IMG/VR virus record: IMGVR_UViG_3300043010_000145
Direction: 5' to 3' (one strand)
Source: a virus
Lineage: Duplodnaviria > Caudoviricetes
Length of the DNA: 64,000 nucleotides
The notes under the pieces were generated by a model. It did no database searches. It was not told where the DNA came from and saw nothing but the letters and a program-made list of their open reading frames with translations. The position numbers and the translations under genes are program-made. This document shows, one piece after another, positions 7,690 to 41,856 of the stretch; position 1 is the first letter of the stretch; the number at the start of each line of letters is the position of its first letter.

Positions 7690-7718
7690 TTGCATACTTA
7701 TTTTATTTGTGGTATACT
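7690..7718 (+). promoter_or_regulatory. Sigma-A promoter (extended -10) of RNA/mini-CRISPR cassette A
   Basis: TTGCAT-17 nt-TATACT preceded by TGTGG; same TTTGTGGTATACT at 41478-41490. Confidence 0.8.
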
Positions 7719-7728
7719 TTAAACAGAC

Positions 7729-7867
7729 AAGGAAAAGCATTAGATATTAGGGTGCTTGGGTGAAAAACCTAAGTGAGCCCCGCACGGGCGGGGAAATCCT
7801 ATATTATTTAAAGCTAGCAAAATGATATAGGTCAGTAAAAGTGCACGTTTACTGCAATGCTTTCCTT
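7729..7867 (+). ncRNA. Conserved multi-stem structured RNA, copy A
   Basis: Closing stem AAGGAAAAGCATT/AATGCTTTCCTT encloses four hairpins; homologous to 41501-41638 with compensatory changes. Confidence 0.75.
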
Positions 7868-7928
7868 CTAAAGATGTCAGGCTTGGGAACTAGTATGTCT
7901 TAACTATTCGATTGGAAAACACAGATAT

Positions 7929-7998
7929 GTTGCAAATTTGCGGATTTGTAACAAGGTATACCAAGTTAAGTATGAAAACGGAAAAGCATCTTTCTAGT
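7929..7998 (+). promoter_or_regulatory. CRISPR leader-like segment, copy A
   Basis: GTTGCAAATTTGCGGATTTGTAACAAGGTATACCAAGTTAAGTATGAAAACG conserved with 41671-41722; ends in AGT directly before the repeat in both copies. Confidence 0.65.
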
Positions 7999-8108
7999 AC
8001 TTGCCCCATAAGGGTGGGAATGTTTCTGTATGTATTAGAACTACTTGTTGACCGTTTGCCCCGCACGGGCGGGGATATGTTTCTTGTTTCAACAATCTAT
8101 ACAAGTTG
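7999..8108 (+). CRISPR. Orphan mini-array of two degenerate type I-E-like repeats (7999-8027, 8054-8084) with a 26-nt spacer and a trailing segment
   Basis: ACTTGCCCCATAAGGGTGGGAATGTTTCT and GTTTGCCCCGCACGGGCGGGGATATGTTTCT; CCCCGC-N4-GCGGGG hairpin as in I-E repeats; spacer matches 7210-7235 at 22/26 with an AAT flank. Confidence 0.8.
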
Positions 8109-8136
8109 GCACTCCGCAAATGCGGAGTGTTTTTTC
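8109..8136 (+). terminator. Intrinsic terminator closing cassette A
   Basis: GCACTCCGCA-aa-TGCGGAGTGT followed by a T run. Confidence 0.85.
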
Positions 8137-8203
8137 TATTGTCTAACAAGATAAAGCAGCGATACCTCGACACATAGGTCGGACTTCGCTGCTTTATCTT
8201 GTA

Positions 8204-8763
8204 TCAGATTTTATCTAACCATAACATTTGTTTTGTAGCAGATTTCACCTCGCTACAGTCTTTGTTTTGTACTAGATTTTGTCTAGTCGCAATCTTTATT
8301 TTGTTCCAGTATTTATCTTGTCCTATTTTCTCTACTCCACCTCTTCTGCCAGCACCAAACATTCTATGCATCAGCATTATACCCATACTATGATATTCTG
8401 CACCACCAGTAGAAGCACAGCAATCCTCTATTACAATAGGAATAATACCCGCATCCCAGAGCGAAATAGCACAGGCAAGCACACAAATTCCCAGCTATGC
8501 AAAGCAAATTTAGTTTGCTTTGCATAGCTAATTATTCTGTTAGAATAATTGCAAGTAAGCTCCTGTTCCGTAGCAGATTCCATTTTCATCCAACCTATTG
8601 CTTTTTCGTAGATACTTCCTTGTTCATTCTTGAATTGGGTACAAATTACGGTATCAAATTTCTTATTAGCAACCAGCTTCTGTATTCTTTCTGCACAAAC
8701 TTTTGTGTTTTCGTCTAAAAGAAAGCCTTGTTGTACATCTACAATCAGTAATATCTTCTGCAT
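8204..8763 (-). pseudogene. Isochorismatase/cysteine hydrolase family gene disrupted by a palindromic insert
   Basis: N-part MQKILLIVDVQQGF and C-part CVLACAISLWDAGIIPIVIEDCCAS lie in different frames, separated by a hairpin module at about 8486-8550. Confidence 0.8.
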
Positions 8764-8873
8764 TTTCCATTTCCACCTATCTATTTCTTCTTCTTTTATT
8801 TGTTTCCTCCTTTTCACCATTCACTCGCTCTATTTTCTTGAACCAACTTTCCATTCAGCACCAAGGGGAAATT

Positions 8874-9139
8874 ATGAACCAGCTCATTCTCGACATACTC
8901 CTATTTCGCCCGCAGACAGCTCCTATTATTACATCATTTCAGCAGCAGTTCTGCCAGAGCATCAAGGCAAAGGCATAGCTACGAAATTAATGCACAAACT
9001 TCTAATCAGTCTGCCTAGTTCTTGCAGTACCATTACAGCATCAGCCGTTTCTCACGAGGGTATCTCCTTGCTTGAAGCAAATGGTTTTGTCGCAGTGCAT
9101 TCTGCATCTACTTATACGGTTTATTGCAAGAACATCTAG
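8874..9139 (+). pseudogene. GNAT acetyltransferase fragment (frameshifted or internally deleted)
   Basis: YIISAAVLPEHQGKGIATKLM acetyl-CoA motif and EANGF; the RBS-preceded ATG at 8874 is in another frame. Confidence 0.65.
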
Positions 9140-9266
9140 TCGCACATATTCCCCGTTCCATTTTTTGTCTTGTGCCATTCTATTGCTTGTTCCTAGCCTT
9201 ATTTTTCTATATTTGTACAAGGTAAATTACTTATACTCTTTGAACAACAAGGAGTTGAGTTTAACT

Positions 9267-9893
9267 ATGATAAAATTTGGAAAATACAGAGTTCAGGCAT
9301 ATATTACTCTAACTCAAAAAGAAATCAATGAGATACTCACGGAGCAGAGCAACGGCTTGTATTTTTGGGAATACAATCGAAAACTAGACGATTATTGCGG
9401 GTATAAAAAGGGGAAACCCAGTGAAGAAGCATCACGAGAAGTTCGCCGAATTCTTAGCAGATATTACCATGTACGAATTACAGATATAATTTTTGTAGAT
9501 TTTTTTGAAACTGAAGAAGAGCCACCAGAAGATGAGTATATACCTTATTTTTGCATGCGAGTTGCTACATCAAAGCTTTTACCTGCTACCGTAGAATATG
9601 GTGCTGAGTATATGATAGAAATGCCGAAGCAAGAAGCTTTGAAATTATTGCAGAAAATAAATCCAGATATCGAATATTTAACTCATATCGTTAATAGTTT
9701 GGCATATAAGCTGAGGAATGATGACTATGAGTATTATGACAGTATGGATTTAGTTGCCACTTTATCTGCTTATTTTGGTATAGAGGTGTTCGATATCACT
9801 ACAAATATTACTAGGTATGTCTATATAAATGATAGGTATAAGTCTACTGAGTTCGACACAGTGTATTTTCACCTATTTCACTTCGACAAGTAA
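9267..9893 (+). CDS. Hypothetical protein (two-fold internal repeat; probable paralog of the next gene)
   Basis: AAGGAG RBS before ATG 9267; SEEASREVRRILSRYYHV versus SEEATAAVCQLLTKYFQV. Confidence 0.75.
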   Translation: MIKFGKYRVQAYITLTQKEINEILTEQSNGLYFWEYNRKLDDYCGYKKGKPSEEASREVRRILSRYYHVRITDIIFVDFFETEEEPPEDEYIPYFCMRVATSKLLPATVEYGAEYMIEMPKQEALKLLQKINPDIEYLTHIVNSLAYKLRNDDYEYYDSMDLVATLSAYFGIEVFDITTNITRYVYINDRYKSTEFDTVYFHLFHFDK

Positions 9894-9995
9894 TCATTTC
9901 ATGTATTCTTCTATTCACGGAGGAAGTACTTCGTTTTTTCTCTATTTTCAACCAGAAAACTCATATAATTTCTGAAACAAAAGGAGATGTAGAAA

Positions 9996-10556
9996 ATGTA
10001 TCAAGTATGCAACACAGAAGTAAAAAACTTGCTTGAAATTAAATATGAAGATTTAAAGAAACTTGTTTCAAATTTATCCAAAGGCTCTTTGTCCGTACAA
10101 TATGACCCATGGAGCTGCACAGGAGTAGATAAAGCAACAGGCGAAGCATCCGAGGAAGCAACAGCAGCAGTCTGCCAGCTTTTAACCAAATACTTTCAAG
10201 TACCAGTTGTCGGCTTACATTATTGGGACCCAGCTGGCTGGCGAGAAGCTGTCATCAAATTGGTTTTAGATGTAGATAGACCTCTGCGGTCAATCAAAGG
10301 GTATCCAGTGAAAAACACGATTGTGTTTGATTGGAATAGTTTTGATGCAAATGTGCATAATGCAGACACGAATTACAACGGTATGACAAGAGATACGGAT
10401 TTCAATCTGCTGTACAAAGATGCACACGGTACAGAGCACCCAGCAGAAGAATATTTCCCTAAGTTGTCTAAGATTTTAGGCGTGCATGTTTCCCATGTGT
10501 ATATGGACGCTGACGATGATTATTGCACAACATTGTATGTTGAGTATACAATTTAG
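9996..10556 (+). CDS. Hypothetical protein
   Basis: AAAGGAG RBS, 186 aa, terminator at 10565-10590. Confidence 0.8.
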   Translation: MYQVCNTEVKNLLEIKYEDLKKLVSNLSKGSLSVQYDPWSCTGVDKATGEASEEATAAVCQLLTKYFQVPVVGLHYWDPAGWREAVIKLVLDVDRPLRSIKGYPVKNTIVFDWNSFDANVHNADTNYNGMTRDTDFNLLYKDAHGTEHPAEEYFPKLSKILGVHVSHVYMDADDDYCTTLYVEYTI

Positions 10557-10913: not shown

Positions 10914-10956
10914 TCTTTATTATTGGGGATTAAAAGAAAAAAGGGGTGAAATAAAT

Positions 10957-13900
10957 TTGGATAAATTAAAACGAACAGTATTGTTCTTATTTCTTGGAAT
11001 TCTAGTATTAGCAGATACTAGTATGTCTATTTTCGCAGCGGGAAGTAGAGCGGCTGACGTAATTTGGGGCGATATACGAACATATTCACAAGAGGACATG
11101 CCTTATTTAAGTGATGCAATCACAGCGGGAAATATAAGTTATTCAACGGCTTATCAAAGAGGTCGTTCCTCCTCAGATACAGTTAAGACAAGTGTATATC
11201 AGAGCCAGAGGTTTAGTTCTGAGTATTCCAGTGGTTATTTTGCACCACAAGCAGGTCGTGAAATGGCGGGATTATCTAGTACGGCTGCAAGTACGGGTAA
11301 AGTTAGTTTAGGTTATTCATGGACATATAATGGTGAAGCATCCTATTGGTATAGCAACACGGTATGTTGGAATTTCACAAATACAGCTTATAACTCAAAT
11401 ATATTTGTTTATTATAAGCAAGGGGCTTTTTATAAGGGTGAGTATTATGATGTTAAGGTGTATTATTGGATGGAAAAGACATCTGGTCTTGATACTTCTT
11501 ATAAAGTGTATTCTAGCGGCTCTGTACAGGTTGTAGTAGATGCTAATGGGGATACTGCAAGACAAGCCTGTAGTCAGGTACATATGAAGATGTATTTCTT
11601 TAAGTCAGATGATACAAATGTAACATTCACGGATAGTACAGACAAAAGTAATAATGGTGAGGGTTATAAATTAGCAACTTATTCTACTGTGCCTGCTAAT
11701 TCTAAGGCTGCTGAGTTCAAAGGTGTTCTTTGTATAACAGATATGGACGCTGGCGAGGGTATGTACTTTAAGAGTGGTGTAGCGAGTGCTGCAAATGTTT
11801 ATTTGTCATCCAATACATTTATACGTAGGGTGCATTCTGACTCAGATATGCATGGTGCTTTTAATGAATATTATAATACAGGTTATACTAGTGAATTAGA
11901 CACAGGTAGTTTGTATGGTGTTGTTGCATCGGAGAATGCTAGCTCAAATCTGTCTACATTACTTAAAGAATATATTGCAGACGGGATGAATGCATCTACT
12001 AAGAAATTCCCATTAGGAACAAGTACAGTTGCTTCAACCTTACAATCTGGTTATGATACTGGTTTAATGTATGTGAGTGCATTTAGTAATGTGAGCCCGG
12101 ATTCTTCGAATAGCTTGTTAGGTAATGAGCCTGAATATATGTCTATGTGGGCAGAGTTTTTTTCATCATATTCTACACCAACGGAATTGGTTTATTTTAC
12201 GCCAAGTTCTCGTGGTGCAGACATTGGTTACCGAGGTGTGAATATTAACTATCAGAGTGTAGTTGTAGATAATGACTGTCTCCAAACTACTGCTAAAAAA
12301 TCTAAGGAGCTGGCAGCAGACCATGCAACTGCTTACGGTTCTTATCCTGTAACAAACGCTAGTTCTGCGTATGCTCAGGCACAGAGTGTTTATGGTTCCA
12401 ATTATACTGTTGAGGGTATTTATGCAGATTCAACATTAAAAACAAAGTATACTAGTGAGGATATTATAAAATTAACAGATGAAGATATTACATTATATGT
12501 AAAGATAATACCTACATATACTGTTACTGCGAAATCTTCTACTGGGGGCGTTACAGTTACACCGTCTAGTACTACATTGGCAGAGGGTGATTCTTGTAAA
12601 ATATCTTGGACTGCCCAAACTGGGTATGTAATTGCGGATATTACTGTTACAGCTCAACAAACAACAGCTGCCTATGGCCTAGTTAGTTTAGGTGGCGAAT
12701 CACATGGTGTAACTAGTACGTATACAATGCCATCCAGTAATACTGTTACAGGTGGTTATGTTACTATTACAGAAAAAGACCAAGCCGCCACAGGAAGTAC
12801 ACATAACACACATCGAAATTATGTTGTGAATGTAAGAGCAGTGCCTATAACCACGGATACTGTGGAAAGTTCTTATCAGTATGAAGTGCCTGTAACCTTT
12901 AATCTGACAAAAACAGATTCAGGAGATTCTACGGTATTACTGCAAGGAGCTACATATAGTTTAAGTCCATATAAGGCATTATCAGGTTCAACTTCTTATA
13001 GTGCTGTAACGTCTGCAAATAGTACGGCTACAACAAGCAGCACGGGAAAAATATCGAAAAAGTTTACAGTTGCCTCAGGTACATCTAGTACGTATTCTAC
13101 TTCTATAAAGTATATTCAGTCATCTGATATACTATCTTCATATAGTTCAACGGCTCAGAAGAATTTATTTGAAACAGCTTATAAGAGTACTTATACAGAA
13201 TCAACAGTACGAGCGAATGCTGAATCAACAAATGTAACAAGTTTCACAAATTGGCTTACGTCCAGTAAATTGGTTGGCAGCAAGATACAAGTAAAATACA
13301 CAGAAACAACTGCACCGACAGGTTATCAGTTATCTTCTACTACGAAAACTAGTTCTTCTGCTACGGTGGGTAGTTTTTCAGCAGGCACAGATGGTGTTTA
13401 TAGACCAACAACTGCATTGACAATAACAGCAACAGATACAAATACACCGTATAGCGGTACAAGACAAGAAGCGAATTATTCTTGTAATTATCTTGTTTAT
13501 GTTCCTATAACCGTAACCTTAACTAAGAAAGATGCAGGTACAAGTGATTTATTATCTGGTGCTAAATTCAGTATGTCTAGTGCCATTACGACCAATTCCT
13601 CCGGTGTAACATTAAGTTTAACAAACAATACTGCAACGGCTACAACCAATACAAATGGAACATTAACGTTTACCTTCCAAGTAAAAGGTTCTTTCACAAA
13701 GAATCTCACATATTATTATTACGATATGGATTCCTTGACAGGTTCAGCTAAAACTGCAGCACAAGCAGACGTGAATGCAAATTCCAATGTGTATGCAACT
13801 AAAGATGAAGCAACAAAAGCAGTTCAAGCAGCAGTTCTAGCAGAAGCAAATGCTACTGCAACCAAGCTGAGTAATGTAGTTATAACTGTTTCAGCTAAAG

Positions 13901-16900
13901 AAACTACTGCACCTACGGGGTATGATTTACCTAGTTCTGCTACAACTACTAAAACTGTAACATTAGGAACATTGCCTTACGATTCTTCCACTACGAGTTA
14001 TGGAACTACTGTAACTTCCTCTATGACTGTTACAGATACGGCTACGGCAGGCACAACAGCTACGGCATCTAAAACACAGACTTATACTTATGAAATTCCT
14101 ACAAGTTTAGTTATTACAAAAACAGATGCTACATCAAATTCTGCTTTATCTGGTGCTGTTTTTTCTGTAACTAGTACTGCAACAGATTCTACAAAGACGT
14201 TAACAAGTGAAACTACAAACACACAATCCGTTACAACAAATAGCAGTGGTAAAGCAACGTATTCTAATACATTGACAGGCTCTTTCACATTGACAACAAA
14301 GAATTATACGTATTATACGAATTATTCTTCGTTAAAGGGTTCTGCATTAAAAGATGCAAATAATGCAATTAATAACACAACAGTTTTCAAAACAAAATCA
14401 GAAGCTGAAGCTGCCGCTGATTCCGAATTAGCAACACTGCTTTCATCTAAGCAAACAGATTTAAAGAATATTGCGGTTACATTCTCTGCTAAGGAAACAA
14501 CTGCACCCAGTGGTTATGCTTTAGATACAACAACACATACATCTTCCAGCATTAAATCATCAGCATTTACAACTTCTGGTACGAAATTAACTGGTTCTAT
14601 ATCTACAACTATGTCCGTAACAGACACTCCATCAGGTGGTTCCTTGTCTGTTTTGACTGCACAAACAAAGCAGTATAACTACACAATTCCAGTGTCTATT
14701 AAATTAACTAAGAAGGATTCTACTACTAATGATGCTCTTGCTAATGCTACATTTACTGTAGTGAGCAAGTTTGGTTCTGAATCTTACGGTAATTCTGTCT
14801 CCAAAACGACAGATGAAAACGGTTTATTAACAGCAACTAGAAATATTACAGGTACAATTTCTGTTACAACATCCGCTTATTTGTATTATACAGATTATTC
14901 TAGCCTCGTAAGCTCTGCAAAAACGGAAGCAGATACAAAGATAGCCAATGGTGAAGCTTATAAAACGAAAGAAGATGCACAGGCTGCCGCTGATGCAGAA
15001 TTGCCTAATTTGGTTAAAGCAAAGTTAGCTTCCTCCGTTACGAGTCAAGCGATTCAGGCAAAAGCAACAGAAACAAAAGCACCATCAGGGTATACGTTAG
15101 ATACTACTGCACATGAAAGCAGTAAAGTGTATCCTAGCAATTATACTCTATCTGGAACAACTGCAACGTATTCAACTGTATCCGTGGATATTGGTACAGT
15201 TACAAATGATGCAGCAGGTGCAGCTACGGCACAGGTAGAAGCTACTACAAAAGAATATACCTACAGTATTCCTGTAAGTATTTCTTTAACGAAAACAGAC
15301 GCTGATTCTGGTAATTTGTTGAGTGGTGCAGTTTTTGATATTACAACGAAAGGTGCTTCCGATACAACGTTTACAAGAAAACAGTCTAAAACAACAGATT
15401 CGAATGGTGCAATAACCACAACGGACACTATTACAGGGAAATTCTCAGTTACATCTAAGGCGTATAAGTATTATGTAGATTATGATTCACTTGTAAGCAC
15501 TGTCAAGACAGAGGCAGATAAAAAAATTGCAAGTGGTGAGATGTATAAAGATGAAACGGCAGCCAGAGCTGCCATGCTTGCTTCTTTGCCTAGTCTAGCA
15601 GAAGAATATCTTAAAACAAATATTTCTGCGGTTGCATTACAGGCACAAGCAATAGAAACCACAGCACCAGCAGGGTATGAACTTGATGCTACTGCACATA
15701 CAAGTAAAGAGGTTAAGCCAACAACGTATTCTTTATCTGACACTGTATTTACATATGATACTGTGGCTTTACAAATAGGTACAATTACAAATGAGCCAAA
15801 AGGTGCAGCAACATCTACATTGTCATCTGTAACACAAAATTATTCGTATACAATTCCCCTGCAAATTACTTTGACAAAGAAGGATTCAGATTCTGACAAT
15901 CTGTTACAAGGTGCGGTATTTGATATCACCACAAAGTCTGCCACAGATTCTAGTTTTACAAGAAAACAATCAAAGACAACAGATAATAACGGTGCTATTT
16001 CTACTGCGGATACAGTCAATGGTACCTTTACAATAACGTCTAATACATTTAAGTATTATGATGATTATGATTCTCTTGTAGGTACAGTAAAAGACGAAGC
16101 AGATAAGAAAATAGCGTCTAATCAAGTTTATAAAACAAAAGCAGATGCACAAGCAGCACAAGCTGCTTCATTACCCGTTCTTGCAAAGGAGTATGTTGAA
16201 GCAAATATTTCTGCAAAAGGAATTCAAGCACAGGCAATAGAAACAACAGCACCTGACGGATATACATTAGATACAACTGTACATACAAGTGAGGAAGTTA
16301 AACCTGATAAGTATACATTATCTGGCACAACTTTCACATACAATACTGTAACATTACCTATTGGTACAGTTATAAACACACCAAAAGGAGCTTCTGTTTC
16401 TACCGTAGCTGCCATTGAAAAGCAGTATTCGTATGTAATTCCTTTACAAGTTACTTTGACCAAGAAAGATTCCAGTACATCTTCCTTGTTAAAAGGTGCT
16501 ACATTTGACATTACAACTAAGGGATTGAATGATGTTGACTTTACAAGGAAACAAACAAAAACAACGGATACTAATGGAAGTATTATTGTAACAGACAGTA
16601 TAAATGGTACATTTAAGGTTAAATCCAAGGAATTTAAATACTATGATGATTATAATGCACTTGTAAGTACAGTTAAAGAAAATGCAGATAAGAAAATTGC
16701 TGCGGGAGAGATGTATAAAACAAAAGCAGATGCAGAGGCTGCCCAAGCCGCTTCGATTCCAGTATTAGCTACGGAATATCTCGCAAATAATATTTCCACG
16801 GAATCTATTCAGGCTCAGGCAATAGAAACAGCAGCACCTGACGGGTATACATTAGACACAACTGCACACCTTAGTAAAGAAGTTACACCAAGCAAATATT

Positions 16901-19860
16901 CTTTAACAGATTCTGTATTTACGTATGAAACTGTAAATTTAGATATTGGAGATATTACAAACACACCTAAAGGTGCAACAATTTCTACAATAGAACCAGT
17001 TACAACCACGTATACTTACACTATACCTATGTCTGTAACCTTAACAAAGAAAGATTCTACTGCGGATATTATGTTGGCGGATGCAAATTATACTTTGTCT
17101 ACAAAAACTTTGAAAGATTCAGACTTTGTTCGTAGTCAGAATGCTACCACAGATAAGAATGGCTCTTTAAATGTATTGGATTCTGTAAGTGGTACGTTTG
17201 ATGTAAAAACTTCTTCTTATAAGTATTATGATGACTATGACGCACTGGTAAGCACTGTAAAAGAAGAAGCAGATAAGAAAATTGCAGCCAACGAAGTATA
17301 TAAAACAAAAGCAGATGCACAGGCTGCACAAGCAGCTTCTATTCCAGTATTAGCTAAGAATTATGTAGAAAATAATATTTCAACGGAAGTCATACAGGCA
17401 AAAGCAGTGGAAACTAAGGCACCTAGTGGGTATGTATTGGACACAACAGAACATGTTAGTAAAGAAGTAAAACCAACAAAATATACTTTGACAGATACTA
17501 CTTTTATGTATGATACTGTGAATTTAAGCATAGGAACTTTAACGAATACACCTAAGTCTGCTGATGTAGAAACATTGAATGAAGTTACAACAAAGTATAC
17601 TTATACTATACCAATGTCTGTAACGTTAACAAAGAAAGATGCTACCGCTGATATTCTGCTGGCAGATGCTAGTTACACCTTGGCTACAAAGACTTTGCTA
17701 GATGCAGATTTTTCAAGAGCACAAGTGTCTGCTACAAATGAAGATGGAGTTTTAACTGTGAACGATAGTGTCAGTGGGGAATTTAGTGTAACAACATCTT
17801 CTTATAGCTATTATACAGACTATGATTCTTTGGTTAGTACAGTGAAGGAAGACGCAGATAGTAAAATTGCGGCTAAGGAAGTATATAAGACAAAAGAAGA
17901 TGCACAGGTTGCATTAAATGCGTCTATACCAGTTCTTGCTAAACTTTATCTTGAAAAGAATATTTCATCACAAGATATTCAAGCTAGTGCTACGGAAATT
18001 AAAGCACCTGATGGGTATGTAGTAGATTCAGAAGTGCATATTAGTGATGCAGTTAAACCAACAAATTCAACTTTGACAAATACAGAATTCACGTATGATA
18101 AAGTTTCCTTGAATATTGGTACTTTAACAAATACGCCTAAGCCCGCAGTAGTTGATGAGTTAGATGCTCAAACAAAAGAATATTCCTATAATTTACCAGT
18201 AGATATACAGTTAGTGAATCAAGATGTAGATACTGAGGAGCCCTTGATTGGTTCAGATTTTACTATTACATCTGCCACTTCTCAGAAAGATAGTTCTTTT
18301 GCGGAAACTTATAATGAAACAACAAATGAAGTCGGCAAAATTAACTTATCTCGGGAAATCACGAATAAATTCACTGTAACGTCTAGTTCTTACAAATATT
18401 ACGATGATTACGATGCACTTGTAAGTACTGTAAAAGCAGAAGCAGATGAAAAGATTGCAAATAATGAAATTTATCAGTCTAAGGAAACTGCACAAGCAGC
18501 TCTTGAAGAAGAACAAGAAAAGCTTGCCAATCAGTATATGACGAATAATATTTCAACTACAACACTACAATCTACTGCAAAACAAACGAAAGCTGCTACA
18601 CCTTATGTTCTTAATACAGAGACCTATGAGTTGAATGATGTTCCAATGACGAACTATGCTTTTGACGAAGATACAAATACCTTCAATTATGAAACAGTAA
18701 TTATGGATTATAAAGTTGTAAATAATTTGAAGTATCTTGTGGAATTAGTGAATATAGAGAATGAAGTATTAGAAGGTGCAGAATTCCAGATTCAAGATGT
18801 AAATGGTACTGTAATTGACGAATGGGTATCCTCCGAAGAGCCACATGCTATACCGGAACTCGTAGATAATCAAACATATACAATTGTAGAGGTGAAAGCA
18901 CCACAAGGCTATGTTTTAGCAAATTCAACTACATTTGAAACGATTGATGAACATAATACAAAGATAACCATTGTAAACGGTAAGTATAGTGTATCTCTTG
19001 TAGATTCCCAAGAAGAAACTATCGAAGGTGCAAAATTCCAGCTTTTAGATGAAGAAGGTAATATCTTAGAAGAATGGGTATCTACCGAAGATGTTTATAT
19101 TCCTGATTCTTTAACTGTTGGTAAAACGTATACTATTGTTGAAACATATACGCCAACTGGATTTAATCAAATGCAGCCTTATACATTCACAGTAGCAAAT
19201 GAAAATGAAGCTATTGTTTTAAAGAATAATTGCACAAGTATCTATAAGAAAACTTCCACGGGCAAAGCCGTGGTAGGTGCTGCATTACAGATACAAGACG
19301 AGGAAGGTAATGTAATTGATAGCTGGCTAAGTGGTCAACAAGTTGTTTCACTTGAGGATTCCGTAGTTAAAGAAGCAAATGAAAAGGGTATTGCATATAT
19401 TGTAAAACCTGATATTTCAGAGAATTCAACTGAAGAAACTATACCGTCTGATGAAGATTTAGCTATTATTATTATGCAGAAGGTTAAGCCAACAACAACC
19501 GAAAATACATATGTTTTGATAACAGAATATTCTGACGGTAATTGGACTTATCAAGAAGTTGATAGTAAAGGTATTGAATTAGGACATAGAGCAAATCTTA
19601 TCTCTGATACCAATTATGAACTTGTGGAAACTAAAGCACCAGATGGTTTTGAACTTGCTTCTAATATGAGTTTTATTGCAAAAGCCGATACAGATTATTC
19701 TGTAACAATGATTGATGAATATAAAGTAGAAGCTGCAATTCATAAGCTAGCTACGGGTATTCATTCTAACATTACATATATTGCAGTTGGTTTCGCAGCC
19801 ATTGTAATTCTTGTCGTTATTTTTGTTTTGCGAAAGAAAAAACATACTGCCACAAACTAG
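10957..19860 (+). CDS. Giant cell-wall-anchored adhesin with SpaA/prealbumin-like repeats (2967 aa)
   Basis: Signal peptide; many roughly 195-aa repeats with LTKKD..LxGA.F and ETxAPxGYxL motifs; C-terminal LATG, hydrophobic segment and RKKK tail. Confidence 0.9.
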   Translation: MDKLKRTVLFLFLGILVLADTSMSIFAAGSRAADVIWGDIRTYSQEDMPYLSDAITAGNISYSTAYQRGRSSSDTVKTSVYQSQRFSSEYSSGYFAPQAGREMAGLSSTAASTGKVSLGYSWTYNGEASYWYSNTVCWNFTNTAYNSNIFVYYKQGAFYKGEYYDVKVYYWMEKTSGLDTSYKVYSSGSVQVVVDANGDTARQACSQVHMKMYFFKSDDTNVTFTDSTDKSNNGEGYKLATYSTVPANSKAAEFKGVLCITDMDAGEGMYFKSGVASAANVYLSSNTFIRRVHSDSDMHGAFNEYYNTGYTSELDTGSLYGVVASENASSNLSTLLKEYIADGMNASTKKFPLGTSTVASTLQSGYDTGLMYVSAFSNVSPDSSNSLLGNEPEYMSMWAEFFSSYSTPTELVYFTPSSRGADIGYRGVNINYQSVVVDNDCLQTTAKKSKELAADHATAYGSYPVTNASSAYAQAQSVYGSNYTVEGIYADSTLKTKYTSEDIIKLTDEDITLYVKIIPTYTVTAKSSTGGVTVTPSSTTLAEGDSCKISWTAQTGYVIADITVTAQQTTAAYGLVSLGGESHGVTSTYTMPSSNTVTGGYVTITEKDQAATGSTHNTHRNYVVNVRAVPITTDTVESSYQYEVPVTFNLTKTDSGDSTVLLQGATYSLSPYKALSGSTSYSAVTSANSTATTSSTGKISKKFTVASGTSSTYSTSIKYIQSSDILSSYSSTAQKNLFETAYKSTYTESTVRANAESTNVTSFTNWLTSSKLVGSKIQVKYTETTAPTGYQLSSTTKTSSSATVGSFSAGTDGVYRPTTALTITATDTNTPYSGTRQEANYSCNYLVYVPITVTLTKKDAGTSDLLSGAKFSMSSAITTNSSGVTLSLTNNTATATTNTNGTLTFTFQVKGSFTKNLTYYYYDMDSLTGSAKTAAQADVNANSNVYATKDEATKAVQAAVLAEANATATKLSNVVITVSAKETTAPTGYDLPSSATTTKTVTLGTLPYDSSTTSYGTTVTSSMTVTDTATAGTTATASKTQTYTYEIPTSLVITKTDATSNSALSGAVFSVTSTATDSTKTLTSETTNTQSVTTNSSGKATYSNTLTGSFTLTTKNYTYYTNYSSLKGSALKDANNAINNTTVFKTKSEAEAAADSELATLLSSKQTDLKNIAVTFSAKETTAPSGYALDTTTHTSSSIKSSAFTTSGTKLTGSISTTMSVTDTPSGGSLSVLTAQTKQYNYTIPVSIKLTKKDSTTNDALANATFTVVSKFGSESYGNSVSKTTDENGLLTATRNITGTISVTTSAYLYYTDYSSLVSSAKTEADTKIANGEAYKTKEDAQAAADAELPNLVKAKLASSVTSQAIQAKATETKAPSGYTLDTTAHESSKVYPSNYTLSGTTATYSTVSVDIGTVTNDAAGAATAQVEATTKEYTYSIPVSISLTKTDADSGNLLSGAVFDITTKGASDTTFTRKQSKTTDSNGAITTTDTITGKFSVTSKAYKYYVDYDSLVSTVKTEADKKIASGEMYKDETAARAAMLASLPSLAEEYLKTNISAVALQAQAIETTAPAGYELDATAHTSKEVKPTTYSLSDTVFTYDTVALQIGTITNEPKGAATSTLSSVTQNYSYTIPLQITLTKKDSDSDNLLQGAVFDITTKSATDSSFTRKQSKTTDNNGAISTADTVNGTFTITSNTFKYYDDYDSLVGTVKDEADKKIASNQVYKTKADAQAAQAASLPVLAKEYVEANISAKGIQAQAIETTAPDGYTLDTTVHTSEEVKPDKYTLSGTTFTYNTVTLPIGTVINTPKGASVSTVAAIEKQYSYVIPLQVTLTKKDSSTSSLLKGATFDITTKGLNDVDFTRKQTKTTDTNGSIIVTDSINGTFKVKSKEFKYYDDYNALVSTVKENADKKIAAGEMYKTKADAEAAQAASIPVLATEYLANNISTESIQAQAIETAAPDGYTLDTTAHLSKEVTPSKYSLTDSVFTYETVNLDIGDITNTPKGATISTIEPVTTTYTYTIPMSVTLTKKDSTADIMLADANYTLSTKTLKDSDFVRSQNATTDKNGSLNVLDSVSGTFDVKTSSYKYYDDYDALVSTVKEEADKKIAANEVYKTKADAQAAQAASIPVLAKNYVENNISTEVIQAKAVETKAPSGYVLDTTEHVSKEVKPTKYTLTDTTFMYDTVNLSIGTLTNTPKSADVETLNEVTTKYTYTIPMSVTLTKKDATADILLADASYTLATKTLLDADFSRAQVSATNEDGVLTVNDSVSGEFSVTTSSYSYYTDYDSLVSTVKEDADSKIAAKEVYKTKEDAQVALNASIPVLAKLYLEKNISSQDIQASATEIKAPDGYVVDSEVHISDAVKPTNSTLTNTEFTYDKVSLNIGTLTNTPKPAVVDELDAQTKEYSYNLPVDIQLVNQDVDTEEPLIGSDFTITSATSQKDSSFAETYNETTNEVGKINLSREITNKFTVTSSSYKYYDDYDALVSTVKAEADEKIANNEIYQSKETAQAALEEEQEKLANQYMTNNISTTTLQSTAKQTKAATPYVLNTETYELNDVPMTNYAFDEDTNTFNYETVIMDYKVVNNLKYLVELVNIENEVLEGAEFQIQDVNGTVIDEWVSSEEPHAIPELVDNQTYTIVEVKAPQGYVLANSTTFETIDEHNTKITIVNGKYSVSLVDSQEETIEGAKFQLLDEEGNILEEWVSTEDVYIPDSLTVGKTYTIVETYTPTGFNQMQPYTFTVANENEAIVLKNNCTSIYKKTSTGKAVVGAALQIQDEEGNVIDSWLSGQQVVSLEDSVVKEANEKGIAYIVKPDISENSTEETIPSDEDLAIIIMQKVKPTTTENTYVLITEYSDGNWTYQEVDSKGIELGHRANLISDTNYELVETKAPDGFELASNMSFIAKADTDYSVTMIDEYKVEAAIHKLATGIHSNITYIAVGFAAIVILVVIFVLRKKKHTATN

Positions 19861-20613: not shown

Positions 20614-23600
20614 TTGATTAATTTGGGGTGTTTAAAGCGAACATTTACGGTTTTTACAGCCTTATTTATAGTATTGTGCAGTTCTATCACTATGTTGTTT
20701 GCTGAAGAGCAAGAGTCATTAAAAAAGCAATATCATGACGCAAACACTTTTAATAAAGATTTAGAGAATTTTGAGTGGGGTGATGTTAGAACATATCCTA
20801 CGGAAACCATTGGTTGGTTATCTAATGCTATAAGTAAGGGTTATATTAAATATACAACAGATGCTGAACGTGGCGGTTCTTCTATTTATGCAAAGAACGG
20901 AAATACATCAAATTCAAAGTGTCATAGTTTCCGACAAGAGTACTCTAACGGGTATTTTTCCCCGCAGGGTGGCCACACAAAAGCTACAATTAGTTCTAAG
21001 TTGCGAGTAGCAACTTATGATGATTACAATAATTCACCAAGCTACAAAGCATTTCTCAATAATTTCGATGTTATTATAACGAATCATAATGAAAGTCGAA
21101 CAAATACATCCGTGGAGAGTTATTGGGCCATAGATAACGATATGTGGACTTTCTTTAATACTAGCTATAATGACAACATATATGTATATTATAAAGAGGG
21201 TGCTTTCTATAATGGTGAATATTATGACGTAAAGGCATATTACTGGACTGAAAGTACAGTAGAGGATTCCACAGATGTACCTATTCGTTATTCTGTGTTA
21301 TCTAGTGGTTCTATCTCAAATGGTTGGGCTGGCTCTGCTAGGAACGCACAAGCATTTACACAGGTGCATTGTAAGTTTTATTTCTTTAAATCATCTGATT
21401 ATCCTAATGCAAATGCAGATAATGCCCCTGCTAATTCTAAGGCAGTTGATTTTAAAGGTGTGTTTGGTATAACAGATTTAGATGCTGGGGAAGGTGTAAA
21501 ATTTATAAGCGGTGTGCAGTCTGACGAGAATGTGTATTTATATCAAAATACATTTGTTAAGAAGGCCACAGAGAGTACAATTCATGGTTTATTTAATGAG
21601 TTTTTCAATACGCAAAATTCTAGTACAGAAGATGGTGTTATTACTGCAAATGATGAAGAGTTAAACTTATTATATATTCAGGCTATGAAAGGCGGGGCTT
21701 CGAGTATTAACACTACAAATTGCCCATTTATTGCTACAACAGGTTTCAATACTACAACACATAAGTATGATTTAGCTAAAAGCACAGTCCCAACCAGTAT
21801 TTCTGGTACAGACGGTTCTTATGCTTTAACATATGTTGGTTCTTTTGATAATGTGAGTAGTAATTATTTATTAGGTAATGATGTGGAATCTATGATGCTC
21901 TGGGCGGAATTTTCCTCCACAGCTTCCGAGCCATTTGAAATAACTTATTTTAGTCCAAGTACTCGTTGCACAGATATTGCTTATAAAGGTCTAACTATTA
22001 ATTATAAGGCGAAAGTAGAAGATAATAATTGCTTGTCTAGCAGTAAGAAAACTACAACCGATTTAGCCACAGATTATGCAGATTATTATGGTACATATAC
22101 TTTACGTACCTTAGACGACACAAGTACTGATGGTTATACTGCTGAAAAATCTTTACTGCAAAAAGTAAAAGCAGAATATGGTGATGGTTACACTGTACAG
22201 GGTATTTATACAGATTCTACATTTAAAACACTAGCACCCGCAAGTGTAAGTTTAGGTGAAACTGACTTAACCTACTATGTCCTTGTTACACCAACCTACA
22301 ATGTAACTGCCGTAACAGATGCTGGTGCAACTCTGCTAACAGACGCTTCGGTTACAGGTCTAGCGGAAACATCTTCTACCAACACAAAGCTTGTGGAGGG
22401 CAGTACTGCAACCACTGTTAAATGGGAAGCAAAGAAAGGGTATATCATATCTGACGTAAAGATAGAAGCAATTCCCGCCACAGATACCGATTATTATGGT
22501 AATAGCAGTAAGATAAAAGATGTATCTAATACAGCGTATGCAAACAAGAATTATACATTGACAAGCGGTTCTGTTCAGATATGCGAGAAAGATGAAGATA
22601 ATATTCATAGAAATTACAAGGTAACTATATCTACGGTGGCCATAGGTTCTAAAGAAGATACTACATCTTTTGCATTAGAAGTTCCCGTCACATTTGAATT
22701 AACAAAAACGGATAGTGCCAATTCCAGTTTATTGCTAGAAGGAGCTACTTATGATGTTACATTCATGAAGGATTCAAAAGCAGTAACCACAGTGCAGGCT
22801 ACAACAGATGCAACAGGAAAATTAAGTGCAACTGCCGTTGTAGATTCTTACACGTATTCCAAATCTTTTGATACCACTAAATCATATATTGCGGGAACAT
22901 TGCCAAAGACGTATTCCAGTACAACACAGCAAGCATTGGTACAGAATGCAATTTCCAGCGGTAATTATTATGCAAATGAAAGTGCGGCATTAGCAGCATC
23001 TAAGGCTTTACGAGAAGAAGATTGGTTGAATGCAATAAAGAATAGAACTTCCAATATTACGGTGAAATATAAAGAAACGTCAGCACCATCCGGGTATGAA
23101 TTGTCTAGTAAAGAAAAGACTACATCAAGCATTACAGTGAATTCATATGCTGCCGATTCCAGTGGTGTGTATAAGCCTACAACAACAGTAAAACTTACTG
23201 CAACTGATACAAACACACCATATAGTGGTACACGAAAGACAGTTTCTAAGAGTGCTACTTATAATGTTTCTGTGCCTGTAAGTTTCCAAGTTACAAAGAA
23301 AGATGGCAGCACGAATGATTTATTATCTGGTGCAGATTTCTCAATCACAGGTACTATCTCTTCAAATACAACAGGTGTGAATTTGTCTTTAGCAAATTCT
23401 ACATCGACAGGTACAACAGATAGTAATGGTGTAGTAACTTATTCAACAAACTTGACGGGTTCGTTTACGAAAAATGCTACATGCTATTATTATGATTTAT
23501 CTTCCTTAGCAGGCTCTGCTAAAACAGAAGCACAGAAAGAGATAGATTCTAATAGTAATGTTTTTGCAACACAAGCGGAAGCAGAAGCGGCTGCATTAAA

Positions 23601-31037: not shown

Positions 31038-31046
31038 TATAAATAC

Positions 31047-37896: not shown

Positions 37897-38358
37897 ATGC
37901 CAGAAGTTTTTAAACCCACACAACTGCGGGAAGAATATCCTGATATTCCTATCCTTTACGAAGAATTTTGTTTCAATCCCCTTGATGCCCAAGCCAAAGC
38001 TGACTATTTGCACACAAAAGAAACTAAACCCGTTGCAATTCCATATTTAGATGCACCAACTCAATCTTATGCAAACATCTGGAAGAAGATATTCAATATA
38101 CAATATTCTATGCACCTTATAGAAAACAATTGGAGTCCTAAATCCAGTTCTACAACATGTTCCTCTTGTGGTTCAGTTATCAACACCAACCTTTACCACG
38201 GTATGACTTGCCCAATTTGTGGCGAGCAGCTACCAGATACAGAACAAGCAGAGGAACTAGCAAAGCGAAAGCAAGAAATACACGAATTAGAAACGAAAAT
38301 GTTGGAATGTGAGCCAACTTTGTACTTTCTTGTGGTATTTCCCGCAAGAACAAAATAA
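37897..38358 (+). CDS. Zinc-ribbon protein
   Basis: CSSC...CPICG followed by a coiled coil; AGAAAGGA RBS. Confidence 0.75.
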   Translation: MPEVFKPTQLREEYPDIPILYEEFCFNPLDAQAKADYLHTKETKPVAIPYLDAPTQSYANIWKKIFNIQYSMHLIENNWSPKSSSTTCSSCGSVINTNLYHGMTCPICGEQLPDTEQAEELAKRKQEIHELETKMLECEPTLYFLVVFPARTK

Positions 38359-38452: not shown

Positions 38453-38540
38453 CCCGTCATGGTGGAATCGGCAGACACACCGGACTTAAAATCCGTTGCT
38501 CATTTCGAGCGTTCCAGTTCAAATCTGGATGACGGGACCA
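38453..38540 (+). tRNA. tRNA-Leu (anticodon TAA)
   Basis: Acceptor CCCGTCA/TGACGGG-A-CCA, anticodon loop CTTAAAA, long variable arm GCTC/GAGC, T-arm TCCAG-TTCAAAT-CTGGA. Confidence 0.95.
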
Positions 38541-39021: not shown

Positions 39022-39270
39022 ATGTTTCGCAAAGATGTATTAGAAGAAGCCTACACAACATTTGGTGGGCACAAAGCCTTTTTCGTAGGCGAAGAAAATT
39101 ACAGTATTCAACTTGAATACACCAACAAGCAACCAATCGTAACGGTTGTAATGCACAAGAATGTCTGCCCCGGCTCTGATGTGTATTTTTCTACTGCAAA
39201 AGAAGCAGAATGCTTCGCTCACTGCATGACAGATGAGCAAAAAAGAGCTTATTTTCGATATTTTTCTTGA
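39022..39270 (+). CDS. Hypothetical protein
   Basis: AGGGA RBS before MFRKDV. Confidence 0.55.
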   Translation: MFRKDVLEEAYTTFGGHKAFFVGEENYSIQLEYTNKQPIVTVVMHKNVCPGSDVYFSTAKEAECFAHCMTDEQKRAYFRYFS

Positions 39271-39436
39271 CAGCAACATATCCTTAGGCTAATATAATAA
39301 GTGAAAAATCCTTTGGATTTTGTGTTGCCATAAGCGAGCAGTTCTAACTTTTAGACTTGCTCGCTTTTTGTTTTCCCACCGTTTTGTAGTACAATTAAGT
39401 ATATCTTTTATAAGCTGGAAAGGAAGTGTTTTTTTA

Positions 39437-39748
39437 ATGTCAGCTTATCCACAAGAAATACAAACCAATCTGTTCGATGCCATTGGCGACCAAATCACTT
39501 TATGGCAGACAGATTCTAAAACAATCTATGACGCCAATGATATTCTAGCTTTTTTAAATATATACGGAACTTTGCAGCCGAATCTGGAACAAATCAAAAA
39601 CCTTGCCACAGAAAACCATGCCCGCATTGATGTAGATGATGAAGATATTTTTGTTTACAATCCAAAGGGTATCACCGAAGCAGACCAGCAAAATCTTGCA
39701 CAAGCAATTCAGCAAATCAGTCAATTCTTGAAGAGGATTTCTAAATGA
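39437..39748 (+). CDS. Hypothetical protein
   Basis: GAAAGGA upstream of MSAYPQ; stop overlaps the next start. Confidence 0.65.
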   Translation: MSAYPQEIQTNLFDAIGDQITLWQTDSKTIYDANDILAFLNIYGTLQPNLEQIKNLATENHARIDVDDEDIFVYNPKGITEADQQNLAQAIQQISQFLKRISK

Positions 39749-39930
39749 TTGAGAAATTAGATGCCTATCTTGAACTTTTGCTCGATTTCTTACTTTATGC
39801 AGTTGCTCTGGTAATTGTTTTCTTTGTCTTGCTTTTCTGCGGTGCAACTGTTGTACTTGCTGTTGCATTATTGCCACTGTTTGCACTTATTTATTATGGG
39901 TATACCAACTTTAAGAAAAAGGATAAGTAA
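39745..39930 (+). CDS. Small membrane protein
   Basis: GAGGA RBS, long hydrophobic stretch, KKKDK tail. Confidence 0.65.
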   Translation: MIEKLDAYLELLLDFLLYAVALVIVFFVLLFCGATVVLAVALLPLFALIYYGYTNFKKKDK

Positions 39931-40145
39931 ATTTATGGTTCTGTAAAGATTTCTAAGGGAAAACACTTATATCTTTTGTATTGGTGGACAGGTATAATAG
40001 AAAGGTGTCGGACAAGGCACGGTTCACCGCTCAAAATACGGATTACTGGAATGGCTAATTAGGGAGTGGCTGTTTCAGTTTTTTCTTGCTCTTTTTCTTA
40101 CTTAATACCACTTGCAAAATTTTCGATTCTACGAACATTTCAAGA

Positions 40146-40280
40146 CACTTGCCTTGATTTTTGTCCAGCACTTGCCTTCACAGGCTTTATTTCGTAAAAC
40201 TTCATTTAGATTAATTTCCGAGCTTGCGGAAATGCGGAGAGTGTACTCTCCGCATTATCATCAACTTTTCCAACTTATCT
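40146..40280. repeat. Distant partial copy of the fold-back repeat core
   Basis: CACTTGCCTTGATTTTTG...GGCTTTATTTCGTAAAA...TTTCCGAGCTT...AATGCGGAGAGTGTACTCTCCGCATT. Confidence 0.75.
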
Positions 40281-40553
40281 ATTTATTCTGCCTACAATCT
40301 AGTCTTTTTCTTCTGGCATATCCTCACATTCTGTTTCCGTTTCATACGAGTAAAGTGAGAATTTACGAACTTCTTCGGTATCCTCGTAGATTTCTGAATT
40401 GTCAGCTTCGTATTCTTTTTCGTGCATAAAATTGCTCCTCCTAGTACAAACTATATGTGTTTTACTGTTTCTGCTTTCTCTTTGCCTTGTTTCAGAACCA
40501 GTGAAGAGAAATTATCTATAAATATATGAATAGACCTAGGAAGGTGGGTATTT

Positions 40554-40739
40554 ATGAAATATTTTGTAAATGTACGTATTGACGGATGCTATACGGCTGC
40601 TGTAAATGCAAAAGATATTGACGAAGCTATCGAGAAAGCACAAGAAAAATATGCAAAAAAGAATTTTGGTGAAGATGTTTATTTGCTTGATGGCTTCGAA
40701 GTGATGTCTGTGGAAGACGAAGATGGTAACGAACTCTAA
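40554..40739 (+). CDS. Small acidic protein, family member 1
   Basis: MKYFV..DG....VNA..IDEAIEKA...VEDEDGN shared with 41944 and 42137. Confidence 0.8.
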   Translation: MKYFVNVRIDGCYTAAVNAKDIDEAIEKAQEKYAKKNFGEDVYLLDGFEVMSVEDEDGNEL

Positions 40740-40843
40740 AATAGGAAGAAGTTTGTGTGAATACAAACTTCTTTTCTTTGGGTATTATTTTTGTAATTTA
40801 GTCTATGATAACTATTTTTTGTTTAAAATAGTTAATCTTATGC

Positions 40844-40985
40844 TTGATTTAATTGTATAGATGGGTATAATAATACTCAGAAAGAGGCAAAACAAAATAA
40901 TACATCTCGGTGCCTCTTTTAGTAGTAAAGTTCCTTTCTAAATTCATTACATTGAAAAAGTCATGATTCCCCACATGGCTTTTTC
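40844..40985 (+). ncRNA. Promoter-sRNA-terminator cassette 0
   Basis: TTGATT-16-TATAAT; stem AAAGAGGCA/TGCCTCTTT; TTCCTTTCT; terminator with ATTCCCCA loop. Confidence 0.55.
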
Positions 40986-41073
40986 TTTTGCTTGTTTCTT
41001 CTGTTTGCAAACAGTTATATCTTTTAGAAAGGAATATGTACAAGATATTATTGCTTGTACCATAATATGTAAA

Positions 41074-41274
41074 ATGAAATATAATGTGCAATATCTATTT
41101 AACGGTGAGATAGACCTTGAAGTATCCGCAAATAGCCCAGAAGAAGCCGTGCAGAAGTTCTGGAACAAATTCCCAAAAGCAACTATGGATAATCTAAGCA
41201 TTACAGAAGCAAATGAATTGAATATATGCGATAAAGACTGGAACTTCATTTGCTCCGCTGATTTTGAAGAATAA
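41074..41274 (+). CDS. Small acidic protein, family member 2; its 3' end is matched by the guide at 41757-41807
   Basis: MKYNVQYLFNGEIDLEVSANSPEEAVQK...ICDKDWNFICSADFEE. Confidence 0.8.
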   Translation: MKYNVQYLFNGEIDLEVSANSPEEAVQKFWNKFPKATMDNLSITEANELNICDKDWNFICSADFEE

Positions 41275-41462
41275 TACATTGTATTATCTTGCTCGTGCAA
41301 AGCACGAGCTTTTCTTTTGTTTTAGTATTTTAGAAAACCTTTAGATTTTCCTGAACTATTACTTAGAGAAGAAATTATACAAGGGTGATAAATTCTATCT
41401 AATTTTGATTTTATTGAACTAGTTGAATACTGTGATTAATTGTTAAAGTTTTTAACTTTTAC

Positions 41463-41490
41463 TTGCAGTTCTTCTAATTTGTGGTATACT
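41463..41490 (+). promoter_or_regulatory. Sigma-A promoter of cassette B
   Basis: TTGCAG-16-TATACT with TGTGG extension, homologous to 7690-7718. Confidence 0.75.
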
Positions 41491-41500
41491 GTATTCATAT

Positions 41501-41638
41501 AAGGAATAGCATTATATTATGGTGCTTGATTAGAAACATTTAAGTAAGCAATTTAGAACGGTGGAAAAGCATATATTATTTAAAGCTAGCTAAATGATAT
41601 ATGATGGTAAATGTGCACGTTTACTGTGATACTTCCTT
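41501..41638 (+). ncRNA. Conserved multi-stem structured RNA, copy B
   Basis: AAGGAA...TTCCTT closing stem; hairpins CATATATTATTTA-AAGCTAGC-TAAATGATATATG and GGTAAA-TGTGCACG-TTTACT. Confidence 0.75.
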
Positions 41639-41727
41639 GTAAAGCTACCAGTCAGAAAACTCGAAGGTGTGTTACAAAGTTGCGAATTTGTAACAAGGTG
41701 TACCGAGTTAAATATGGAAACGAAAGT

Positions 41728-41807
41728 GTTTGCCCCGCACGGGCGGGGATGTTTCTGTTTGCGATAAAGACTGGAATTTTATTTTATCCGCTGATTTCAA
41801 TGATTAA
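41728..41807 (+). CRISPR. Solitary type I-E-like repeat (41728-41756) followed by a guide-like segment
   Basis: GTTTGCCCCGCACGGGCGGGGATGTTTCT (29 nt); the next 51 nt match 41224-41274 at 41/51; leader-like segment at 41671-41727. Confidence 0.8.
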
Positions 41808-41826
41808 ATTGCTGCTTGGTATGGTT

Positions 41827-41856
41827 AAAAAGCTCATTTAATGAGCTTTTTCTTTT
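41827..41856 (+). terminator. Intrinsic terminator closing cassette B
   Basis: AAAAAGCTCATT-t-AATGAGCTTTTT. Confidence 0.8.

Follow-up and report, generated by a model that had tools for sequence, protein, structure and literature searches.

The 64,000-nucleotide (nt) stretch considered here (IMG/VR virus record IMGVR_UViG_3300043010_000145; hereafter the window) contains two members of a family of three homologous units, each of which joins a long structured RNA and a CRISPR repeat to a guide resembling the gene beside it. Judging from the sequences, we suggest that these units are mini-CRISPR arrays with a type I-E-like repeat, which would serve competition between related elements through a Cascade complex acting in trans; we regard this reading as about evenly poised between right and wrong. 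Allele exclusion by means of a borrowed Cascade, which the initial annotation of this DNA had put forward, appears to be the best reading of the units.

The initial annotation described two homologous units 34 kb apart with an identical order of parts. Both are present, sharing 78% mean column identity on alignment and long invariant blocks, but two proved too few: a third homologous unit, here called unit 0, lies 30.9 kb upstream of the window on the minus strand of flanking DNA L023 (about 4215-3830). All units follow the order promoter, 5' domain, leader, repeat(s), one guide and intrinsic terminator. Unit 0 possesses the same promoter block and 5' domain as units 1 and 2, and continues with two C-ending repeats flanking a 32-nt spacer, after which comes the terminator. 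The original description of a repeat followed by a guide is accurate for unit 2, which has a single repeat, but not for unit 1, which is a repeat-spacer-repeat mini-array. The parts of the two units within the window are the following.

7690-7718, plus strand: unit 1 promoter-like site with extended -10 (TTGCAT-17-TGgTATACT), read from the sequence
7719-7880, plus strand: unit 1 conserved 5' multi-stem RNA domain (nhmmer E = 5e-51)
7773-7801, plus strand: repeat-like hairpin inside the unit 1 5' domain, with an exact CCCCGCACGGGCGGGG core and different flanks
7881-7998, plus strand: unit 1 leader, with a hairpin block common to unit 2 and the leader-repeat junction motif AAAGCATCTTTCTAGT
7999-8027, plus strand: unit 1 degenerate (psi) repeat, with 7 mismatches, a weakened stem and an intact ATGTTTCT tail
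8028-8053, plus strand: unit 1 spacer of 26 nt (32 minus 6)
8054-8084, plus strand: unit 1 second repeat, with a 2-nt AT insertion 3' of the hairpin
8108-8137, plus strand: unit 1 intrinsic terminator (10-bp stem, T run)
41463-41490, plus strand: unit 2 promoter-like site (TTGCAG-16-TGgTATACT)
41491-41652, plus strand: unit 2 conserved 5' multi-stem RNA domain (nhmmer E = 6e-43)
41653-41727, plus strand: unit 2 leader, from the alignment with unit 1
41728-41756, plus strand: unit 2 single perfect 29-nt type I-E-like repeat, GTTTGCCCCGCACGGGCGGGGATGTTTCT
41757-41807, plus strand: unit 2 guide of 51 nt, copying in frame the final 16 codons and the stop codon from a diverged allele of the neighbouring gene
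41827-41856, plus strand: unit 2 intrinsic terminator, from a terminator scan

The promoter-like site of unit 1 was not called by a simple consensus scan; on alignment, the TGTGGTATACT block of the extended -10 site is invariant in all three units. Despite divergence to 67–78% identity, none of the units has lost this -10 block or the 5'-domain stems, and each has a terminator and one or more perfect repeat cores. The 5' domain is ∼160 nt long, and its consensus fold, computed with RNAalifold from the three sequences, is a 14-bp closing stem around three hairpins, with 39 pairs in total, two of them showing compensatory changes. Unit 1 as a whole folds with z = -4.6. An nhmmer profile of the domain retrieved exactly three copies in about 146 kb and no others, and neither the RNA nor the repeat matched an Rfam family, whether gathering scores were applied or E values up to 10 were allowed.

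The conservation just described bears on the possibility that the units are decaying array relics without present function, in which case the matches to neighbouring genes would be leftovers of local duplications. Unit 1, with its degenerate repeat, its 2-nt insertion and a spacer 6 nt short, would fit such decay, as would the loss of the second repeat from unit 2, and the region does hold tandem paralogs as well as duplicated terminator-promoter modules. However, it is the diverged copies that have preserved the promoter block, the compensated stems, the repeat core and the terminator, and random duplication predicts neither guides that start next to the protospacer-adjacent motif (PAM) in three of three units nor the canonical or canonical-minus-6 length of two of them. 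Decay is the least probable of the explanations weighed here.

The perfect repeat reads GTTTG-CCCCGC-ACGG-GCGGGG-ATGTTTCT, that is, 29 nt with a CCCCGC/GCGGGG stem, a 4-nt loop and an 8-nt tail. It has the type I-E form that was originally recognized, the 32-nt spacers included; type IV-A repeats look alike, and the repeat is for this reason called I-E-like only. The stem is presumably equal to that of the Escherichia coli I-E repeat. The spacers measure 32 nt in unit 0 and 26 nt in unit 1, and in unit 2 a second repeat is absent.

Each guide was compared with 127 kb of the element on both strands, together with 200 shuffled versions per guide. Every guide has a single significant match, which is to the adjoining gene, at 79–85% identity, and none of the 200 shuffles equalled it. 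The matches and the resident sites are listed below (aa, amino acids; ORF, open reading frame).

Unit 0 guide, near the 3' end of a 164-aa ORF: 25/32 identical, flank AGC, mismatches at positions 3, 4, 6, 26 and 29-31
Unit 1 guide, minus strand 7235-7210, codons 3-11 of the divergent 233-aa ORF 6542-7243: 22/26 identical, flank AAT, mismatches at positions 16 and 20-22
7210-7238, minus strand: resident look-alike of the unit 1 spacer with its 5' AAT, codons 2-11 of the 233-aa ORFan 6542-7243
Unit 2 guide, 41224-41274, in frame to the stop codon: 41/51 identical, flank AAT, mismatches at positions 1, 3, 21, 24, 29, 30, 42, 43, 45 and 48
41221-41274, plus strand: resident AAT and tail of the small gene 533 nt upstream of the unit 2 guide

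The resemblance of guides 1 and 2 to their neighbours directly after AAT, on which the initial annotation was built, is thus borne out. The differences between guide and gene indeed look like coding divergence, the frame always being kept and synonymous changes being mixed with conservative ones. All guides run in the sense of their gene, that of unit 1 being inverted relative to the 233-aa gene and 790 nt away from it. A diversity-generating retroelement was considered as a source of the differences and rejected, because they are not confined to adenines and a reverse transcriptase was not seen.

In all three units the guide starts exactly at the PAM-adjacent base, and the base in front of the resident match is the same as that with which the preceding repeat ends (T, T and C in units 1, 2 and 0, respectively), extending to the third unit a relationship first pointed out for two. 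During type I-E acquisition the last PAM base enters the array, and the agreement observed here is the pattern that such acquisition leaves behind.

The three neighbouring genes are ORFans without a toxin or defence signature, and searches of Pfam, PHROG, NCBIfam and the Atlas gave no lead to their function. The small gene beside unit 2 is contained in ORF 40963-41274, but its true start is likely at about 41074, which yields a product of 66 aa. It is the first of three tandem paralogs (41074-41274, 41944-42132 and 42140-42310) encoding proteins of ∼62–66 aa with the pattern MKYxVxY...ANSxEEAV, and unit 2 is located between the first and the second. Close to unit 0, a terminator-promoter module of ∼95 nt is duplicated (L023:4153-4251 and 4877-4976, blocks 75–96% identical), with one copy 5' of the 164-aa gene and the other 5' of unit 0. 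As the same module precedes both, gene and mini-array give the impression of cassettes delimited by it.

The repeat of the units is also found in a full array from the same communities. Three public sequencing runs were inspected: X1, which is DNA-like (its type is not on record) and contains the window in full, and X2 and X3, which are metatranscriptomes of animal guts produced in other studies. Contigs from all three contain the identical 29-nt repeat followed by a 32-nt spacer and by the repeat again, with five different spacers and with repeats ending in T or C. Since the repeat is joined to 32-nt spacers in each of the three runs, these communities contain a full cognate array as well. 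In X1 the array contigs are 32–48 deep and the element 30; their depths in the RNA runs are 19–125 and 46–154, compared to about 3–16 over the genes of the element. In the bin that contains unit 2, RNA-run contigs are likewise deeper than over the neighbouring genes, a depth to which contigs of other loci with the same repeat contribute.

Contig ends reveal a further copy of the repeat-bearing hairpin that the 5' domain contains. They also include a junction of leader and repeat that differs little from the one in unit 1 and is joined to a leader like that of unit 2. The recurrence of this junction suggests that the upstream RNA is probably the leader of this CRISPR family. The RNA, which the initial annotation did not recognize from described systems, is more likely to be the transcribed CRISPR leader of the repeat family than a separate device.

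Further searches for the units were made in several collections. BLAST with unit 1 returned no match among PLSDB plasmids or INPHARED phages. Exact-motif scans of IMG/VR with the repeat, three blocks of the RNA and the type I-C repeat discussed below retrieved nothing, and neither did a scan of Joint Genome Institute (JGI) metagenomes for one RNA block. In the JGI scan with the repeat, the sole match was an unrelated, high-GC degenerate array, present three times, with no adjoining cas operon. Among 185,579 species genomes, the repeat core gave 12 single, chance-like matches, all in high-GC genomes and none in an array.

A community with a full array of the same repeat is one in which the element has to survive, and this circumstance invites a different explanation, according to which the units are RNA anti-CRISPRs (Racrs): the 5' RNA and the repeat hairpin would act as a decoy that sequesters Cas6e and Cas7 of the host's type I-E-like system and thereby protects the element, the guide being incidental. 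In unit 2 a lone repeat has a promoter and a terminator of its own, unit 1 has the additional repeat hairpin within its 5' domain (7773-7801), and the repeat together with the following ATGTTTCTGT has a terminator-like score, so that many transcripts may stop right after the hairpin. Left unexplained, however, are the neighbour matches of three guides and one type I-C spacer, unequalled by any of the 200 shuffles, and the repeat-spacer-repeat form of units 0 and 1 with their 32-nt and 26-nt spacers. Moreover, none of the five full-array spacers has a match in 127 kb of the element, and there is thus no sign that the full array targets it. We consider a decoy function quite improbable.

The units had been called cas-less. 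No cognate cas gene is indeed present in 146 kb, but the window encodes two Cas3-HD proteins and a type I-C operon lies past its end. No I-E-type cas gene or array was found in positions 1-146389 of the 156,966-nt contig of the record, a coverage reached by exact-protein look-ups. The two Cas3-HD genes are:

46652-47545, plus strand: Cas3 HD-only protein 1, best PADLOC model Cas3e
48009-49124, plus strand: Cas3 HD-only protein 2, 31% identical to protein 1, best PADLOC model Cas3e

Both paralogs keep an LHD(I/L)GKL motif. Iteron-like tandem repeats (e.g., TTTTCATCTAACCGCAGTTTTTGTCTTGCCCTAG) occur after the first of these genes (47690-47960) and also after unit 1 (8140-8330). In the same part of the window, at 45650-45830, 45880-46060 and 49500-49740, there are short units consisting of a promoter, ∼100–200 nt free of ORFs and a terminator; these are possible small RNAs, with sequences unrelated to the CRISPR units.

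The type I-C system occupies L028:3990-11319, about 1.2–8.5 kb past the window end and 24–58 kb from the two in-window units, and is the only cas operon found in the 146 kb. It is arranged in the order array, cas3, cas5d, csd1, cas7, second array, with no cas1, cas2 or cas4, and the two arrays have homologous leaders and a common 33-nt repeat, GTTGCACTCCATACGGAGTGCGTGGATTGAAAT. This repeat is unrelated to that of the units, and the I-C system is therefore not their partner; for the same reason, and on account of an equally unrelated 11-nt handle, Cas5d of the I-C operon was rejected as the enzyme serving them. The type I-C Cas3 has an HD-like motif of its own, which makes the two HD-only paralogs supernumerary. 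A role as decoys for the I-E-like system, or as its partners, is conceivable.

One of the type I-C spacers displays the same relationship to its surroundings as the guides of the units. The spacer at L028:4372-4405 in array 1 matches the 129-aa gene immediately to the left of the array at 27/34 positions, next to a TCC flank that is one change away from the usual TTC. Its mismatches are all in the PAM-proximal half, the distal 17 nt being perfect. With three units and one I-C spacer, a habit of aiming guides at neighbouring genes would seem to be general on this element, which offers four independent cases across two CRISPR types.

A course of events that would connect these observations can be proposed. 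Each unit would be transcribed from its own promoter into the long structured leader followed by the repeat(s) and one guide. An enzyme of the Cas6e type, supplied in trans, would cut at the repeat, and the guide would load into a Cascade encoded outside the 146 kb examined. The loaded complex would then attack related elements that carry a matching allele of the gene adjoining the unit. The resident allele would be spared by differences in the PAM-proximal seed in units 0 and 2, and by a PAM difference in addition in unit 0; differences in seed and PAM would protect the resident allele in the I-C case as well. With the guide kept beside the immune allele, recombination between relatives could not part the two.

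Several observations weigh against such competition between elements. The perfectly matching target has never been seen: searches of 5.8 billion proteins and of 1.8 billion representatives returned no homologue of any of the three neighbouring genes and no sister element, and the contigs of the element from several samples are 99.9–100% identical to one another. In unit 1, the resident target retains AAT and a perfect 15-nt seed; it should consequently be bound under type I-E rules, and regulation or decay fits this unit better than exclusion. No repeat follows the guide of unit 2, from which a normal Cas6e-capped CRISPR RNA (crRNA) therefore cannot form. A supplier of Cascade was not found in the 146 kb. 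The neighbouring 233-aa and 164-aa genes also occur on a 576,898-bp contig of another assembly, which implies that the replicon or host chromosome is far larger than the 146 kb examined; with the element at least 577 kb elsewhere, Cascade need not be provided in trans from the host. Finally, the contigs of the RNA runs that overlap the repeat may stem from other loci.

The unit 1 site is best considered together with the crRNA-like regulators (CreA, CreR and the crRNA-like RNAs, crlRNAs). In such systems partial pairing lets Cascade bind a neighbouring gene without cutting and thereby repress it, and the element's genes would here be tied to the presence of an active Cascade. Unit 1 bears the published signature of these regulators, with degenerate repeats, a 26-nt spacer, an intact AAT, perfect pairing at positions 1-15 and mismatches confined to the PAM-distal part. 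Its target, in codons 3-11, is situated ∼60–85 nt downstream of a promoter-like site, a position that fits regulation, and the shape of unit 2, one repeat and a 3' hairpin, is like that of some published crlRNAs. However, binding should fail in the other two units, given their seed mismatches (positions 3, 4 and 6 in unit 0, which has a flank mismatch as well; positions 1 and 3 in unit 2). There is also no cognate cas operon nearby, the sites lie in coding sequence (in the gene tail for units 0 and 2), and the neighbouring ORFans give no hint of a toxin or of defence. A CreR-like repressor, the alternative offered in the initial annotation, consequently suits unit 1 but not units 0 and 2, and as an account of the family we find it unlikely. 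Unit 1 by itself may be a crlRNA-like repressor, or an array disabled to avoid self-targeting.

Unit 2, by contrast with a regular array, has homology to its neighbour that is overlong, includes the stop codon and begins at the PAM-adjacent base, after which come a different terminator and the promoter block of the next gene. For these reasons it would be best explained by a recombination event in which a former spacer crossed over with its protospacer in a relative under attack, leaving the present structure as a scar. The same structure could be interpreted as a homing cassette, perhaps representative of the whole family, whose right end is the repeat and whose guide is the displaced target DNA alongside. 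The logic would be that of the omega RNA at a transposon end, but with a CRISPR repeat and recombination in place of the transposase. Positions 41224-41756 can be read as an insert placed exactly after AAT and made up of a replacement tail, terminator, promoter, leader and repeat; beyond it would come the original tail with the terminator belonging to that tail, and then the next gene's promoter block. This block (41869-41898) is 90% identical to the one upstream of the neighbouring gene (41002-41031), and the 51-nt homology up to the stop codon extends far beyond a 32-nt spacer. As opposed to this, the guides of units 0 and 1 are closed by a second repeat and show no homology into the flank, and the inverted guide of unit 1 stands 790 nt from its gene. 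Neither an empty site nor a second insertion is available for comparison, and no transposase, TnpB or IscB was found, the sole hint being a sub-threshold zinc-ribbon match at 37897-38358. A single spacer-protospacer crossover yields the same structure without a dedicated cassette. A dedicated homing cassette is, in our view, rather improbable.

Homing might alternatively be a consequence of the targeting itself. The arrays would then propagate themselves: Cascade and Cas3 would cut the rival allele immediately next to the site of the array, and recombinational repair templated by the carrier would copy the array along with the immune allele into the rival, which would amount to a natural CRISPR homing drive. 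We give this only a small chance of being correct. Were it true, unit 2 would be a direct product of the process and its guide the displaced target itself, the same logic would apply to the I-C arrays, and the published closeness of arrays to their targets would be explained.

The element looks like a giant conjugative plasmid or an integrative and conjugative element, and its host is probably an animal-gut, Firmicute-like bacterium. It encodes SpaA-domain proteins of 2967 and 1889 aa and DUF285/LRR proteins of 898, 1822, 2559 and 1277 aa; giant surface-type proteins are encoded at 10957-19860, 20614-26283 and 50932-59820 of the window and on the flanking DNA L037 and L040. The flanks further encode a VirB4-like ATPase, TerD, TelA, a PARP-like protein, a Ser/Thr kinase, an M60 peptidase and an intein-bearing C5 methylase. 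Window and flanks hold several orphan DNA methyltransferases. The window (1-64000) contains no GATC site, compared to about 213 expected from base composition. A single transfer RNA gene with a long variable arm and the anticodon loop CUUAAAA (Leu-type) is located among ORFans at 38453-38537.

Taken together, a giant conjugative-type element can apparently carry, beside an adaptation-less I-C system of its own, guides that belong to a second and unlinked CRISPR type, and unit 2 resembles a mark left in the DNA where a guide met its target. Should sister elements be recovered, linkage of guide and immune allele could be tested against homing.

Of the systems described previously, the RNA anti-CRISPRs resemble unit 2 in being solitary repeats with their own promoter on a mobile element, with an upstream RNA that ends in a repeat hairpin. 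Cas7f coats the part of RacrIF1 that lies upstream of its hairpin, and activity has been demonstrated for I-E Racrs (PMC10651486). The upstream RNA of our units is much longer (230–280 nt), a gene-derived guide follows the repeat, and two of the three units are true repeat-spacer-repeat arrays, unlike Racrs. The omega RNAs of TnpB and IscB are likewise comparable to unit 2, in which a structured RNA precedes a guide corresponding to insert-flanking DNA beside AAT. They were rejected as candidates because no such nuclease was detected with Pfam, PADLOC or NCBIfam, Rfam gave no match, and no transposon ends were seen; in addition, the scaffold ends in a Cas6e-type CRISPR repeat, and units 0 and 1 do not fit the scheme.

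Published crlRNAs are solitary repeat units beside the genes they regulate, to which they pair over ∼16 bp next to a PAM, with mismatches in the PAM-distal part; some consist of one psi-repeat and a 3' hairpin, and they reside in or beside a cas operon and target promoters (bioRxiv 10.1101/2024.12.27.630466). Unit 1 shares with them the degenerate repeats, a PAM, pairing over ∼15 nt on the seed side with mismatches farther from the PAM, and a target in the adjoining gene, and unit 2 the combination of one repeat, guide and 3' hairpin. The units differ from crlRNAs in not being beside a cognate cas operon, in their coding-sequence targets and in the seed mismatches of units 0 and 2.

The closest counterparts are cas-less, leader-bearing mini-arrays on mobile elements, which have already been published (PMC6858448, PMC7099407, PMC8730458, PMC8616872, PMC11656645), including those of Faure 2019, considered here as cited in Medvedeva 2019 (PMC6858448). 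Such arrays have host-like repeats and spacers against genes that lie near the array in close relatives, the resident locus being mutated (PMC6858448, PMC7099407, PMC8730458). The claim of a candidate new system must accordingly be withdrawn, as comparable cas-less mini-arrays that target neighbouring genes were described in these three studies. Their authors regarded the origin of the proximity between array and target as unclear. Our units agree with the published virus- and plasmid-borne mini-arrays (Faure 2019; Medvedeva 2019, PMC6858448; Iranzo 2020, PMC7099407) in having one or two spacers and their own promoter and leader, with no cognate cas in 146 kb, in a repeat identical to that of a full array from the same community, and in a spacer similar to a nearby gene whose resident copy is mutated. 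Unlike in the published cases, the targeted relative was not found, and the carrier is not a small virus but a bacterial giant conjugative-type element (at least 157 kb, with a 577-kb contig elsewhere). What further sets the present family apart from the published mini-arrays is that it comprises three paralogous units with a structured 5' domain of ∼160 nt, that one spacer is fused to a 51-nt gene tail, and that the same element possesses its own type I-C system with the same neighbour-gene habit.

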